Shown piece after piece: positions 1-5,383 of a DNA stretch of 64,000 nucleotides. The notes beneath the pieces were generated by a model. That model was not told the DNA's origin. It did not search any database and saw only the letters and a program-made list of their open reading frames with translations. The translations under genes were made by a program, and so were the position numbers. Numbering within the stretch: the stretch's first letter is position 1; every line of letters begins with the position of its first letter. This stretch comes from an uncultured bacterium (GTDB lineage: Bacteria; Acidobacteriota; Aminicenantia; Aminicenantales; Saccharicenantaceae). The stretch is from assembly GCA_937920515.1 (NCBI GenBank), contig CALEUG010000003.1:2108-66107 (forward strand). The letters run 5' to 3'.

Positions 1-2
1 AA

Positions 3-1376
3 CTTGTCTTTCAGGTTCTCAACCCCCCTCGCCTGGATTTTGCGGCCGGCGGCCAGGCCGAAAAATCGGGTGGAATTGCCACGCCCAGCTTTTCGGTTGT
101 CGGGCTGTCCCGAATCCTCGGCCCGGTGGGTGCCGCCCTTACTGAATCAGTCCCGGACCCTGTAGCCCAGGCCGCTGCTGCCCTGAACGACATAGTTAAC
201 GGAAAGTTTGACCCCAAAAAGTTTTTCAGCGACAAGGCTAAAATCCTCGGCGGAATTCTGCTCCAGGATGTCATCGACCAGGTTAATGATTTCACCAGCC
301 CGGCCAACACCGGAAAAGCCCTGACCATCAAGAACGAACAGGTTTACGAAAGCGACGGCAAAACCCCGGCCGGACTCAAGACTCTTCTCAAATGGACTCC
401 TTCCGTCCATGACGTCCTGATATTCATCGCCAGCCGCGACGGGACCAGGTCCACACTGACTTTGAACGTGGAAGTCATTAACTATTTCAACGGAAAAGAA
501 TCGACTTACAAAGTCAAGGGAGAACTTACCGACTTCACCCTCGACCTGATCAAGGGCATCACCACCTTTATCCTGGTCAAATTCTCAAAATTTACCTTTA
601 CCTCAGAAAAAGGGAAGAAAACAGATGTCGACCCGAAAATCGCTTCCATCGATTTCCAGGGCCCGCTCAAATTCATAAAAGAACTTCTTGATAAAATTCC
701 GCTACCAGGAGGCTTCAGCGAGGCCGACGGAGGCTTTGGCGGAAAGCCGATAGTCAGGGTTGATACCTCCGGGGCCAGGCTGGGCTATGCCCTGTCAATT
801 CCCGACGTGGCCTTCGGAGTCTTCACCCTGCAGAACCTGAGTTTCAGCGGAGAAATTTACCTGCCTTTTACCGGCGACCCGGTTTCCCTGCGCTTTGCCT
901 TCAACGAAAAGAATAACCCCTTCCTGGTAACCGTGGCCATGTTCGGCGGCGGGGGGTTCTTCGCCATCGTGCTGCAGCCCCACGGCATCAAGCTCATCGA
1001 AGGTTCCCTGGAGTTCGGCGGCAGCTTTGCCATGAACATCGGCGTGGCCAGCGGCGGGGTTACCCTGATGGCCGGTATCTACTTCAAGTACGAAGACGAG
1101 GCCCTGACCCTGACCGGGTATGTCCGCTGCACCGGAGAGCTGGACGTCCTGGGACTCATCAGCATCTCGGCAGAATTTTACCTGTCGCTTACATACGAAG
1201 AAGCCCGTAACCGGGTCTGGGGCCAGGCCTCGCTGACCGTCAAAATCAAGATAGTCTTCTTCAGCATCAAGGTAACGTTGAAAGTTGAAAGAGAGTTCGG
1301 ACACTCACCGGCGCCGCTCTTCTGTGACCTGATGGAAGAAAAAGACTGGCTGGCTTACTGTGAAGCCTTTGCCTGA
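3..1376 (+). CDS. C-terminal part of a large uncharacterised beta-strand-rich protein (5'-truncated by window edge)
   Basis: Frame is open from position 3 (LVFQVLNPPRLDFAAGGQAEKSGGIATPSFSVVGLSRILGPVG...) into the 126-1376 ORF, so the GTG at 126 is not the true start. C-terminal half is a run of amphipathic beta-strands (GGGGFFAIVL, IEGSLEFGG, GELDVLGLISISAEFYLSLTY) ending WLAYCEAFA. Confidence 0.85.
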   Translation, partial: LVFQVLNPPRLDFAAGGQAEKSGGIATPSFSVVGLSRILGPVGAALTESVPDPVAQAAAALNDIVNGKFDPKKFFSDKAKILGGILLQDVIDQVNDFTSPANTGKALTIKNEQVYESDGKTPAGLKTLLKWTPSVHDVLIFIASRDGTRSTLTLNVEVINYFNGKESTYKVKGELTDFTLDLIKGITTFILVKFSKFTFTSEKGKKTDVDPKIASIDFQGPLKFIKELLDKIPLPGGFSEADGGFGGKPIVRVDTSGARLGYALSIPDVAFGVFTLQNLSFSGEIYLPFTGDPVSLRFAFNEKNNPFLVTVAMFGGGGFFAIVLQPHGIKLIEGSLEFGGSFAMNIGVASGGVTLMAGIYFKYEDEALTLTGYVRCTGELDVLGLISISAEFYLSLTYEEARNRVWGQASLTVKIKIVFFSIKVTLKVEREFGHSPAPLFCDLMEEKDWLAYCEAFA

Positions 1377-1390
1377 AAGGGAGGACGAGA

Positions 1391-4300
1391 ATGGCTAAAT
1401 CAACAATAATGTGGACCGTTTGTCCCAACGGAATTAAGGATGGCAAGCTGCAGTTTTCGGCCGCAGTCTCCATACGCCTGGAAGAAGGCTCAGGCGGAAA
1501 AACCCCGAGCCTCAATTTTTTCCCGGAAATACTTAACTGGCCAGAAACCGTTAAGGCCATAAATTTTGGAGTTATTTACGATAAGAGAAAGGCTGCCGGG
1601 CCAGCCGAAATCAGGAGAACCTCACCAGACCCGGAACCTGAACTCTGGCAGGCCATCTTCAAGCCTGAAGCACCCGTCTTCAATTTCAAGATGGCCGACC
1701 TGAGCAAGAACCTGGTGATATCCTACCCGGTAAAGAATGTCCTGACCTTTGTAGCCTCTCAGTATCTTAACGTGGCCGCAGAATCGCCCGAAGAACCACC
1801 GCCGATAGAAAAAGTTTTCCACACCGAGGGCCTGGCTCAAATCAGGCTTAAGCCCATTACCGATGTCCGTTTTGCCCAGACTGTTCAGCTCCGGACCACC
1901 CGGCAGGTTATGGCCCAGTCAGTCAGGCGGGAGGCCGAGAGTCAGAAGATAAGAGCGGTCCAGGTCACTCCCCTGCCCCAGCCGCCTAAAGATTTCTTCT
2001 TGCTCCGTGATTTTCACAGGCCAAAAAACAGGATAACCTTTGACCCCAAGACTAAACAACCGATTGTCAGGAGGGTGCCCATCACCAGACCGGAGATAGA
2101 TTTCCACCAGGCCCTGGCCTTCCTCACCAATTATCCAGCACTGATGAGACTCCTGGGCCTGGCCGTTGATTTTGAGATGGAAGTGCCGTCAGATTTTCCG
2201 GCCAGCGGCTGGATTAAAATTGTACCCGGGGGCCGGAGCGACGAAACGCCGAGAACAGCATATAACTTTGACCCGGCCCGTGGAATCTTTGAGGCCGCTT
2301 CCAGCAAAAGGCCACCAGAGGTGGTCAGAGGCTTCTTAAACCTGGCCGATGAAGAACAATATGACCTTGTTCAGCTCGATGTCGATGCCATAGCCCTGAA
2401 AACGGCCGAGCTGGCCGACACGGCCGAGACCAGGGAAAAAGCGGAGCTTCCAGCCCTGCGCTCAAGTGGCCTGGGCGTTGTAAGAAATGAGCAGGCCAGG
2501 AACATGGCCGAAGTCCTGGTTCGGGCCGTGGAACTTAACAATGATTTGGTGCGCAAAAGGGAAATAACACTCTTCGCTGAAGATTTAGTGCAGGGCTACC
2601 GGGTCGATGTCTGGGACGAAAAATCCAGGAAATGGCATTCCCTCTGCCAGCGTATCGGAACTTACCGCTTCCTCCGGCTGGACAGAGAACTAACCCTGGA
2701 AGACGAAGGTTTTATATCACCCGCCGTGACCCAGTCGGCAGACGAATCATCCGAAGATATTTTCGCCCATGAATCTCTTTTTCACTGGGACGGCTGGAGC
2801 TTAGTGGCCCCCCGACCCGGAAAGACCATCGACCCGAACGATAATCCGCAAACTATCGAAAACAAAGCCCTTACCGATTTTCTGCTGGAAACCAGGTTCA
2901 GGCCCAGGCCGGGTTCTCTGCCCAGGTTAAGATACGGAGTTGGCTACAGGCTAAGGGCCAGAGCCGTCGACCTGGCCGGAAACAGCCAGCCCCTGGAAAA
3001 TCCTGACGACAGCTGTGCTATTCCACCTCCTTCCAAGCCACCCTTTACCTTCAGCCGTTTTGACCCAGTGCCCTCGCCCCTGGTCATACCCCGTGAAGCA
3101 CCTAAAAGCGGAGAGAACGTGGACCACGTGGTCATAAAGAGTTTTAACGAATCCATAGAGAAGGACAATGTGCCCACCAACCAGGTTTCCGACCGCCACC
3201 TGGCCCCGCCAAAAATCTCCCAGCTGGACTCTGAATTTCATGGGATGTTTGACAGCGCTTCCGGGTTGAAGCCCGAAGTCTATTCTCTGATATGCCAGCG
3301 GGATGGAGGCCGGTTTAAAGAAATGGAGCCGGGCGAGCAGATAGAACTTCCTTACTTCCCTGACCCCTGGGCTCGCGGGGCCTGTATCCGCGGCTTGCCT
3401 TACGGAGCGCCCGACCCGATGCTGATTGAATTTTCAGGCGACTGGCCGGATTACAGGCCGTTTAGAATCAGATTGCAGGAAGGCAGTCAGCCTGCCCGCT
3501 GGGATAATTCCTCCCGCCTTCTGACTGTTTACCTGAAAAAGGGAGAATCGGTTACGTTGCGCCTGAGCTGTTATTTCCCTGAAAGATTACTGCCCGTCCA
3601 GGGACTTTACCGCTGGCTGGAAAAACCTGAAAGGATTATCCCGCAAAAAGTCATGCAGCCGCCGCGGGGTCTACCCGAAGGCCAGGTCCAGGTCCTGAAA
3701 ACCCTCCAGCCGCCCCGAATTGACCTGGCCAGAGTGCGCACGCTTTCGCTTCAGGGGCGCAACTGGTTGATGACACCCTTCAGAGAGATTACCCTGATTC
3801 ATGCCACTCTGCAGCCTGTCGGTAAACCGCGTCATAAATCACTGGAAGCCCGGAGAACGCTCGGCCAGACCTCAGCCATTCTATACGGAGAGTTTGAGCT
3901 CCACGGGCCTAGCACCTCCAAGGCCGAACTTCTGGCCGACTGGAAAGAGCCGGTGGATTACCTTAACGAACCCGGACCCAGGGTCCTGGATGGCAAAGCT
4001 CATGTCCTGGAATTCAAGGTAGACCCGGCCCAGACCTCGCTGACCCTGACTCCAGGGCCTGAAGCCGGAAGGACAGCAGCTCAACCAGGTACGACCCAAC
4101 TTCAGACCAGGTCGGCTTCAGTGGCCATGGTCAGGGCCCCGCAGACTCCGGTTTACCGCCATGAATTCGGCGACACCAGGTTCAGAAGGGTCTACTATCG
4201 CCTGCTTACGACCACTAGGTACATGGAGCAATTTCCCTCGAACGAACTGCCGGAAGAAACCGGATACACCAGAAGCAGCGACCCGGTGGAAGTCAAGGTG

Positions 4301-5383
4301 CTCAACACAGCTCCACCGGCCATGCCGAAAGTCGTTTACGTGGTACCATCTTTTAAGTGGGAAAGGAGCAAGAAAGGCTCTCAGATTACCAGCTTCAGGA
4401 AGAGCGCCCTCCGGGTTTATTTAGAAAGGCCATGGTATTCAAGTGGCGAGGGGGAGCTCCTGGCAGTAATCCTGCCGCCGGGAATCACGGTAACCCCGAA
4501 AAAGCCGGTGGTCGCTCCGGCCAGCCGGGCCGACGCACCGCAGGTTTCCCAGAGGATTCAGCCCCAGCTCCAGAGGAAAACCGTGCCCGGGGCTCTTCAG
4601 GTGAGTGTTCCTCCGGTGGCCGAGAAATACAAGCCCTACGTTACCATGTGGGGAGCCGACCCCATCTGGAGGTCAGGACCGGTGGCTCCGCCCGAGTATC
4701 CGTTGCCGGATGCCTTCCCTTCGGCGGTGGAAATAATGGGAGACCTGCCGCTTCTGGAATTGCCGGAAGATAAGAAATTCATCGCCGTCGGCCACCAGGT
4801 TGAATATGACGCCGAGCGGCAGTTGTGGTTCTGCGACTTAGAACTTGATTCCGGCCAGGCTTACTTTCCGTTTATCAGGCTGGCTCTGGCCAGGTTCCAG
4901 CCAGATTCAGTAGCCGGAGCTCATCTGTCACAGGTGGTGGTGGCCAATTTCGCCCAGATTCTGCCCGAAAGGAACCTGACCGTGACTTTCAATCCTTCAA
5001 GCCTCAAGGAAATCAGCATCAGCCTGTCGGGTGTGTCTTACATCCAGGGTTATGCCGGCAGCGGCCCGGGTGAGGTGGAGGTGGCCCTGGAAACCAAGAA
5101 ATTGAACCTGCCCGACGAGCTGGGCTGGGAACCGGTCGAAGATGCGGTCATTACCCTGAAACCGCAGCGGGCCGGGGCCACAGAAGTCGGCTCGTTTATC
5201 TGGCAGGGAGTTCTTAAACTCCCCTCGGGCCTGAAAATCCAGGATTACAGAATTGCGGTCCGGGAATATGAATTATTCGACACCGACGAAATGGATAAAG
5301 CCGCCAGGACCGTAGCCGCCGTCACCCATAAAAAGTATAAACGTTTAATATACGCCGAGACCATCAAGCTTCTGGACCTTTAA
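1391..5383 (+). CDS. 1330-aa uncharacterised protein with an FN3/Ig-like strand signature
   Basis: Long ORF with SD GGGAGG upstream, 14 nt after the previous stop. FN3-type motif YRLRARAVDLAGNS; Pro/Gln-rich linkers; no signal peptide or catalytic motif recognised. Confidence 0.9.
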   Translation: MAKSTIMWTVCPNGIKDGKLQFSAAVSIRLEEGSGGKTPSLNFFPEILNWPETVKAINFGVIYDKRKAAGPAEIRRTSPDPEPELWQAIFKPEAPVFNFKMADLSKNLVISYPVKNVLTFVASQYLNVAAESPEEPPPIEKVFHTEGLAQIRLKPITDVRFAQTVQLRTTRQVMAQSVRREAESQKIRAVQVTPLPQPPKDFFLLRDFHRPKNRITFDPKTKQPIVRRVPITRPEIDFHQALAFLTNYPALMRLLGLAVDFEMEVPSDFPASGWIKIVPGGRSDETPRTAYNFDPARGIFEAASSKRPPEVVRGFLNLADEEQYDLVQLDVDAIALKTAELADTAETREKAELPALRSSGLGVVRNEQARNMAEVLVRAVELNNDLVRKREITLFAEDLVQGYRVDVWDEKSRKWHSLCQRIGTYRFLRLDRELTLEDEGFISPAVTQSADESSEDIFAHESLFHWDGWSLVAPRPGKTIDPNDNPQTIENKALTDFLLETRFRPRPGSLPRLRYGVGYRLRARAVDLAGNSQPLENPDDSCAIPPPSKPPFTFSRFDPVPSPLVIPREAPKSGENVDHVVIKSFNESIEKDNVPTNQVSDRHLAPPKISQLDSEFHGMFDSASGLKPEVYSLICQRDGGRFKEMEPGEQIELPYFPDPWARGACIRGLPYGAPDPMLIEFSGDWPDYRPFRIRLQEGSQPARWDNSSRLLTVYLKKGESVTLRLSCYFPERLLPVQGLYRWLEKPERIIPQKVMQPPRGLPEGQVQVLKTLQPPRIDLARVRTLSLQGRNWLMTPFREITLIHATLQPVGKPRHKSLEARRTLGQTSAILYGEFELHGPSTSKAELLADWKEPVDYLNEPGPRVLDGKAHVLEFKVDPAQTSLTLTPGPEAGRTAAQPGTTQLQTRSASVAMVRAPQTPVYRHEFGDTRFRRVYYRLLTTTRYMEQFPSNELPEETGYTRSSDPVEVKVLNTAPPAMPKVVYVVPSFKWERSKKGSQITSFRKSALRVYLERPWYSSGEGELLAVILPPGITVTPKKPVVAPASRADAPQVSQRIQPQLQRKTVPGALQVSVPPVAEKYKPYVTMWGADPIWRSGPVAPPEYPLPDAFPSAVEIMGDLPLLELPEDKKFIAVGHQVEYDAERQLWFCDLELDSGQAYFPFIRLALARFQPDSVAGAHLSQVVVANFAQILPERNLTVTFNPSSLKEISISLSGVSYIQGYAGSGPGEVEVALETKKLNLPDELGWEPVEDAVITLKPQRAGATEVGSFIWQGVLKLPSGLKIQDYRIAVREYELFDTDEMDKAARTVAAVTHKKYKRLIYAETIKLLDL

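Follow-up and report, generated by a model that had tools for sequence, protein, structure and literature searches.

A conserved pair of giant genes at the edge of an Aminicenantia contig

We analysed a window of 64,000 nucleotides (nt) from an uncultured bacterium of the Saccharicenantaceae (Acidobacteriota, Aminicenantia; GenBank assembly GCA_937920515.1, contig CALEUG010000003.1, hereafter G000 contig C3, positions 2108-66107; genome 91.7% complete). Its first 5,383 nt hold two giant genes, whose products we call protein A (gene 1) and protein B (gene 2). An earlier note, made from the letters of the window, had proposed that they form a dedicated and undescribed pair. The layout it described was confirmed, with two co-directional open reading frames (ORFs) 14 nt apart and a Shine-Dalgarno sequence, AAGGGAGG, 6 nt ahead of the gene 2 ATG (Table 1). 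The translations contain every motif that it quoted, among them the WxxYCxAF terminus of protein A and YRLRARAVDLAGNS in protein B, and most of these motifs fall in blocks with invariant columns among 56 homologues. Gene 1 runs off the window as noted, and recovery of the upstream sequence showed that the gene itself is complete in the contig: it spans C3:145-3483, starts 1,962 nt before window base 1 and encodes 1112 amino acids (aa). A twin-arginine (RR) signal of the Tat (twin-arginine translocation) type at residues 22-41 and the greater part of protein A's conserved N-terminal core lie outside the window. The closest named homologues of the pair belong to Candidatus Saccharicenans (Aminicenantia).

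Table 1. Positions of the two genes and of their observed or predicted parts within the window
Feature	Position	Strand	Description
Gene 1 (protein A), 3' part	1..1376	+	ORF 3-1376, open at the 5' edge of the window
C-terminal domain of A, residues 778-1112	369..1373	+	Predicted: five long strands, helix, 12 strands, terminal helices
Amphipathic helix of A, residues 876-888	663..701	+	Position at the concave hydrophobic face of the sheet inferred
12-strand antiparallel meander of A, residues 901-1089	738..1304	+	Predicted barrel-wall curvature, one hydrophobic face
Two terminal helices of A	1320..1373	+	Conserved; end in WxxYCxAF
Spacer	1377..1390	+	14 nt, with the Shine-Dalgarno sequence
Gene 2 (protein B)	1391..5383	+	1330 aa; N-terminus fixed family-wide; no signal peptide
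FN3-like domain of B, residues ~345-560	2423..3070	+	Putative; YRVDVWD and YRLRARAVDLAGNS strands, sub-threshold profile matches
Ig-like sandwich of B, residues ~812-978	3824..4324	+	Putative; covariation R822-T973, E853-R932, F931-K969
C-terminal Ig-like sandwich of B, residues ~1190-1327	4958..5371	+	Putative; covariation L1196-Y1321, E1234-A1289, I1210-L1275

Neither protein belongs to any library family that we searched, despite the large size of both families. Pfam matched neither A nor B, nor any of 60 C-terminal homologues of A; PHROGs matched neither protein; PADLOC defence models matched none of the 10 proteins searched, the pair included; and the sequences of the PDB gave no match for A or B, profile searches included. 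NCBIfam offered no family, its sole match being a sub-cutoff Tat signal on protein A. The ESM Atlas placed relatives in unnamed clusters, plus one lead (0.76) with PG_binding_1 in 42% of members. A full-text literature search found no paper on the pair, in a corpus that holds few subscription journals and no supplements and in which unnamed proteins are hard to find by word. Among 8,000 candidates scored we counted 1,394 homologues of A and 382 of B, and a profile of the core of A retrieved 6,691 clusters at 50% identity, of which 3,640 scored E <1e-30. The two proteins are not homologous to each other, and no convincing internal repeats were found.

We found that the two genes are strictly paired. 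The B profile had at least 575 matches in GTDB genomes, of which the best 80 loci were fetched; with the A profile, 65 metagenome loci were fetched. In 70 of the 80 GTDB loci gene 1 immediately precedes gene 2, the other 10 ending <300 nt from the start of B; likewise B directly follows A in 55/65 metagenome loci, and the remaining 10 end too early to tell. Pooled, 125 of 145 fetched loci are paired, and none with room for a partner lacks one. The intergenic gap, measurable in 119 of 126 paired loci (the window included), has a median of 14 nt and is at most 30 nt in 99. Trees of A and B from 58 GTDB pairs are congruent (patristic r=0.89), sharing 32 of 37 strongly supported splits (>=0.95). 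Two unpublished genomes, G340 and G344 (loci L047 and L055), are inside the pairing and signal counts and some alignments, G340 also inside the DUF6603 count and G344 inside the sheath and TatC counts given below; their loci were left out of the trees and of the alignment used for folding. An apparent A-B fusion, P0379, was rejected as a frameshift read-through artefact, and there is therefore no Rosetta-stone evidence for a link between A and B. Gene 1 or gene 2 is split across frames, by assembly error or decay, in six loci (L014, L027, L034, L048, L078, L079). Scanning 72 immediate neighbours and 93 further ORFs revealed no third gene conserved across phyla. The pair is a self-contained, co-inherited cassette and, as the earlier note had proposed, an undescribed two-protein system, real, widespread and uncharacterised, which no described family or system fits.

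Carriers occur in Acidobacteriota, Armatimonadota, Bacillota, Actinomycetota, Chloroflexota, Bacteroidota/Balneolales, Pseudomonadota, Planctomycetota, Verrucomicrobiota and Cyanobacteria. Full pairs are found in monoderms and other lineages, among them Bacillus, Streptomyces, Nonomuraea, Symbiobacteriaceae and Chloroflexota. Within the source phylum the cassette is patchy, being present in 7 of 301 genomes, the source genome counted. It is also present in 19 plasmid records, 11 of which cover at least 80% of B, and in all six annotated plasmid regions checked A lies directly upstream of B. Its distribution is patchy and plasmid-borne, and probably horizontal. None was found in viruses, as searched in IMG/VR (with single-sequence patterns) and GenBank phages. 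Cultured, non-pathogenic carriers include Cupriavidus metallidurans CH34, Streptomyces, Bradyrhizobium and Nonomuraea, and the pair is therefore directly testable.

The C-terminal domain of protein A is predicted to form a helix-filled half-barrel

The earlier note had seen amphipathic strands over some 200 aa at the end of gene 1; these are present and extend further, over ~310 aa (residues 778-1087). An AlphaFold2 model of residues 778-1112 (335 aa, from a 60-sequence alignment) is a 17-strand meander with a predicted local distance difference test score (pLDDT) of 88.5 and a predicted template-modelling score (pTM) of 0.64; between its five long strands and the twelve that follow, the model has a helix at residues 875-886. 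Covariation among ~360 A sequences gave a serial antiparallel meander at residues 780-1087 and another at ~360-530. The strands of the sheet are long and amphipathic (14-18 aa), and one face is ~60% L/V/F/I while the other is rich in S/T/E/K/G, a contrast that is partly built in because the faces were assigned by hydropathy. Along one rim stand five conserved hairpin tips that are hydrophobic and Gly-rich; the tips of the opposite rim are polar.

The helix at residues 876-888 covaries mostly with the hydrophobic face, which accounts for 13 of its 20 top pairs (9.1 expected) and six of the top seven, and its partner residues are spread over strands from 917 to 1081. Since a 13-residue helix of ~18 A would reach such distant strands only from the concave side, covariation suggests that the hydrophobic face of the modelled sheet is concave and wraps the helix, giving an inside-out half-barrel.

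The best structural matches of the 12-strand part are to outer-membrane barrels: CymA (Z 13.6, root-mean-square deviation (rmsd) 5.1, 187 residues aligned) and OmpG (Z 12.8, rmsd 4.2), and the list of barrel walls still stands at Z 9.3 at rank 50. Protein A shares with CymA, OmpG and autotransporter barrels ~11-12 consecutive antiparallel strands of the same curvature (Z 12-14, rmsd 4-6), as well as alternating hydrophobic and polar faces. Unlike these barrels, the modelled sheet is open, with its hydrophobic face apparently inside around a helix; A ends in helices, without a BAM-type strand; and it carries a Tat signal or none, not a Sec signal, and occurs in monoderms. On the model, the matches to outer-membrane barrels reflect curvature and not kinship.

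Another analogy is with large lipid transfer proteins (LLTPs), as passages of PMC6717300 describe the N-terminal domain of MTP and lipovitellin as a discontinuous half-barrel of ~13 strands around a helix. The half-barrel around a helix would be shared with A as an analogy, not as membership, for unlike LLTPs, A has no sequence similarity to them and no helical LLTP domain was seen in it. MTP is in the Foldseek list of A together with the bacterial TULIP proteins OrfX3 and P47, but at template-modelling scores (TM) of only 0.11-0.12. P47 and OrfX2 are described as TULIP proteins in PMC6791001. No repeating beta-groove (RBG), TULIP or LLTP fold was among the top 50 structure matches by Z, which does not exclude these folds.

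The earlier note had also listed an AsmA/TamB-like lipid conduit with a scaffold partner. A housekeeping bridge of this kind, from the inner to the outer membrane, we consider very improbable. As in the AsmA-like or RBG bridges TamB, YhdP and YdbH-YnbE (whose traits are drawn in part from PMC10345924), there is a long amphipathic meander and a partner gene, and one of 32 N-terminal extensions found in A homologues has a weak YdbH-like match (E 0.086), in an extension that the protein A of the window does not have. Membership itself was not borne out: no TamB profile matched (hhalign P 0.58, six-sequence profile), many carriers are monoderm, and the source genome already has two ordinary TamB-family genes. 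Unlike such bridges, the pair is accessory and patchy, its A has a Tat signal or none, and a helix apparently lies inside the groove. For modelled residues 778-1112, structure searches gave LPD-3 at TM 0.19 and no RBG entry in the top 50 by Z. What survives of the lipid groove first suggested is a predicted helix-plugged half-barrel, not an RBG rod.

Protein B resembles a chain of immunoglobulin-like sandwiches

We confirmed that protein B has no signal peptide, its best 19-residue hydrophobicity being 1.42, and its start is fixed ~10 residues ahead of a conserved first strand. Covariation among ~245 B sequences gave immunoglobulin (Ig)-type strand pairings (A-G, B-E and C-F) at residues ~1-295, 345-560, 812-978 and 1190-1327. 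The fibronectin type III (FN3)/Ig-like character that the earlier note had read from the motif agrees with these pairings and with weak profile matches confined to the domain that bears it: among 48 homologues of that domain, fn3 matched four (best E 0.045) and Big_3_2 four (best E 0.014), all sub-threshold, and neither matched any of 96 rows of two other B domains. Given these sub-threshold matches and the Ig-type covariation, an FN3/Ig-like fold is therefore plausible, not established. By covariation, protein B plausibly consists of about six Ig/FN3-like sandwiches in a row and carries large insertions. Two very divergent relatives of protein B, P0381 and P0382, are 2,400-2,550 aa long, with insertions of 800-900 aa.

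In some members recognisable modules are inserted. Fucose-lectin propellers occur in both A and B of L019, and L131 has an inserted cohesin with a Sec-like signal; others include a YVTN-like propeller, LamG, Big_3, YCF48/BNR propellers and a weak Rv2525c-like domain. Members with such extracellular-type inserts are a minority of both families.

These features bear on two further explanations of the pair. The first is a two-component membrane attack, in which the sheet of A, masked in solution by its helix and by B, would insert into a target membrane as part of a pore while B and the swappable lectin or propeller modules pick the target. Long amphipathic strands, hydrophobic hairpin tips on one rim, membrane barrels as the best fold matches, lectin-type inserts and a patchy, plasmid-borne and probably horizontal distribution would all suit such a device, as would release by lysis of the forms that lack a signal. 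Covariation instead puts the helix on the concave side of the sheet, against the hydrophobic face, which is the reverse of the arrangement in a membrane barrel; there is no conserved immunity-like or toxin neighbour and no profile match to known pore-formers, and we regard membrane attack as unlikely. The second is a scaffold, cage or surface lattice that is structural only and handles no lipid, working in whichever compartment it is found in, with the half-barrel as a protein-protein socket of the kind proposed for the LLTP half-barrel; the MTP N-terminal half-barrel, which wraps a helix, is implicated in protein binding in passages of PMC6717300. B looks multi-Ig and the pair is kept whether or not A has a signal, both of which fit a scaffold. 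Conservation of exposed hydrophobic hairpin tips, presence in so few genomes of the phylum, and unremarkable codon usage of the two genes against the genome average (26th and 64th percentile, a weak test) speak against it, and a scaffold alone seems to us rather unlikely.

Protein A carries a twin-arginine signal in many lineages

The earlier note had listed, among its options, a non-Sec-exported or intracellular assembly. This needs amending given the Tat motif on gene 1, which was missed since it lies outside the window: protein A begins with S-R-R-K-F-L followed by a hydrophobic stretch. Of 121 A homologues, 94 show a loose RR pattern within their first 90 residues, against none of 120 B homologues, in a set biased to close relatives. 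Applied to the source genome, a strict N-terminal RR motif picked out 17 of 1984 ORFs (background 0.0004 per 60 aa), of which protein A is the largest, with an h-region score of 1.44 that is within the range of the others. By its sequence, then, protein A is a predicted Tat substrate, with S/T-R-R-x-F-L and an h-region near the N-terminus. TatC was found in the source genome and in 46 of 48 carrier genomes, and in one locus (L048:4789-5124) a tatA-family gene lies directly upstream of gene 1. L048 is mislabelled in the tree set; its gene 1 does carry the RR motif.

Forms of A without the signal begin almost at the core or carry an extension that lacks RR, and they fall in several separate clades of the tree. 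In many A homologues the N-terminus is extended by 400 aa that belong to no known family. The extended forms (for instance L016, L019, L020, L026 and L114) have in common an N-terminal RLNL..LR motif ahead of the RR motif, and this RLNL..LR motif is kept where the RR signal is absent.

A signal on one subunit only, with adjacent genes coupled in translation, is the arrangement of Tat hitchhiker complexes such as hydrogenase, formate dehydrogenase and PaoABC. Hitchhiker export of partners that lack a signal is presented as established in PMC4273604 and PMC10924467. Unlike those complexes, the pair has no redox cofactor motifs, and many lineages lack its signal; A and B together have a mass of ~270 kDa, reckoned at 110 Da per residue, against natural Tat substrates that, in passages of PMC13673990, span <10 to >140 kDa.

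The conserved N-terminal core of A has invariant residues R68, D71, E248, W279, H280, R399, D400 and R426. Such invariant charged and aromatic residues are many, and Tat often carries folded enzyme complexes, as would be expected if this core, or the conserved blocks of B, formed a novel active site to which the barrel presents a hydrophobic substrate. An enzyme complex of this kind nevertheless appears improbable, with no enzyme family match, no conserved pathway neighbours and no recognisable cofactor motif in the consensus.

A tentative model: an exported, membrane-docking, lipid-binding complex

The reading that we prefer, tentatively and with somewhat less than even confidence, is that A and B form an exported, membrane-docking, lipid-binding heterocomplex, in which A-B binding, co-export and lipid binding are all inferred. 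A and B would fold together into one complex, which would leave the cell via Tat on the twin-arginine signal of A, with B, which has no signal of its own, riding along; lineages without the signal may release it by lysis or another route. The hydrophobic rim of A could then dock the complex on a membrane, where the predicted inside-out half-barrel would bind or move lipid, and B would serve as an Ig/FN3-type scaffold and as a surface-binding, targeting arm.

In favour of this model are the strict pairing and the congruent trees, the RR signal confined to A, the presence of TatC in nearly all carriers, the barrel-wall curvature and contrasting faces of the sheet, the covariation of the helix with the hydrophobic face, and the extracellular-type modules inserted in some members. 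Several observations weigh against it. As regards export, RR was scored by script in 35 of the 65 GTDB loci whose 5' end is intact (source included), with three more by eye, and the ~40% of GTDB loci without an RR signal on gene 1, which include Bacillus, Streptomyces and Rhizobium plasmids, still keep the pair; Tat export is therefore not essential to it. The TIGR01409 match to protein A is below the cut-off (E 0.078), A has no clear AxA cleavage site, and the combined mass is nearly twice the upper figure of 'over 140 kDa' for natural Tat substrates given in passages of PMC13673990. As regards the complex, inter-protein covariation is weak, with no clear ladder in 67 effective pairs, which is too shallow. 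As regards the fold, the matches of A are generic, at 8-12% identity with dozens of tied porins; Foldseek TM-scores are poor for soluble lipid-transfer folds (MTP 0.11, OrfX3 0.11, P47 0.12, LPD-3 0.19); the enrichment of the helix for one face is modest; and other long-range strand pairs show no face preference. Finally, the most invariant residues of A sit in the N-terminal core outside the model and could mark an enzyme site.

A bolder form of the exported-complex model, which we advance as doubtful, would make the pair a new class of two-protein membrane machine. It would be a ~270-kDa heterodimer and the largest Tat cargo on record, with a helix-plugged inside-out barrel whose greasy fingertips extract lipids from a target membrane or open it, and with an Ig scaffold bearing exchangeable lectin and propeller modules that choose the target; it would have spread horizontally in diderms and monoderms and switched repeatedly between Tat and signal-less forms. 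If co-export is true, the known size of Tat cargo would be roughly doubled, and the pair would be a natural test of the limit of the translocase. A lipid-binding barrel common to diderms and monoderms, if true, would widen the range of lipid handling or of cell-cell attack in bacteria past the Lpt, Mla, Lol and AsmA-type systems.

Neighbouring genes, contractile systems and DUF6603 operons

The earlier note had placed the pair among annotatable genes. This holds downstream, where genes for a photolyase, a DUF4382 protein and a START-like cyclase lie on the opposite strand; the setting can be shown only on that side because the contig begins 144 nt upstream of gene 1. Promoter and terminator scans gave results at chance level.

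We also considered whether the pair could be an accessory or cargo of extracellular contractile injection systems (eCIS). Orphan tube-like genes adjoin it in four loci (L038:13841-14821, L080:5144-6163, L120:3-284 and L146:8477-9025). Those of L038, L080 and L120 encode related proteins that are some two times as long as a tube protein and look like tandem gp19 domains; in L038 the protein bears a Sec-like signal peptide. Sheath genes were found in 23 of 48 carriers, and more often with signal-less A (15/23) than with Tat (7/24; one carrier unclassified; p=0.02); Pvc16 was found in 15 of 47, again more often with signal-less A (10/22 against 4/24; p=0.054). This association is confounded, as kin are not independent and signal-less genomes are larger, and 32 of the 47 carriers have no Pvc16. 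The earlier note had entertained an association with contractile systems; a required link was not supported: no gp19 tube gene was found in the source genome (91.7% complete; no control genome gave a match), no contractile cluster lies beside the pair in the neighbours scanned, and there is the absence of PHROG matches. A role tied to eCIS is, in our view, the least probable of the explanations considered.

The tail of A has weak similarity to DUF6603 (PF20248; hhalign P 0.002-0.003, probability only 11-15%), with similar last strands and a DW..F/Y..F helix, a likeness that would also favour an eCIS connection, since one DUF6603 operon adjoins an eCIS cluster. Protein A does not match PF20248 above its cut-off, and our full-text search found no paper naming DUF6603. 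The DUF6603 giants (L170-L182) lie in operons of their own that comprise two to four uncharacterised giants; at least two types of partner are conserved, and none of them is in Pfam. As in the pair, a beta-rich giant gene is directly followed by signal-less giant partners. Unlike DUF6603, A has no Pfam match, and the DUF6603 partners, tried as homologues of protein B, were rejected as unrelated.

In carriers related to Bacteroidota, in Balneolales and in a few others, two more uncharacterised and apparently secreted families flank the pair (L033, L039, L059, L061, L063, L067 and L126), one of which is sometimes fused to RCC1 repeats. On a plasmid of Bacillus sp. PGP15 (L194:607-26033), the pair lies amid ABC-three-component, restriction, HEPN and helicase genes, in a setting that looks like a defence island.

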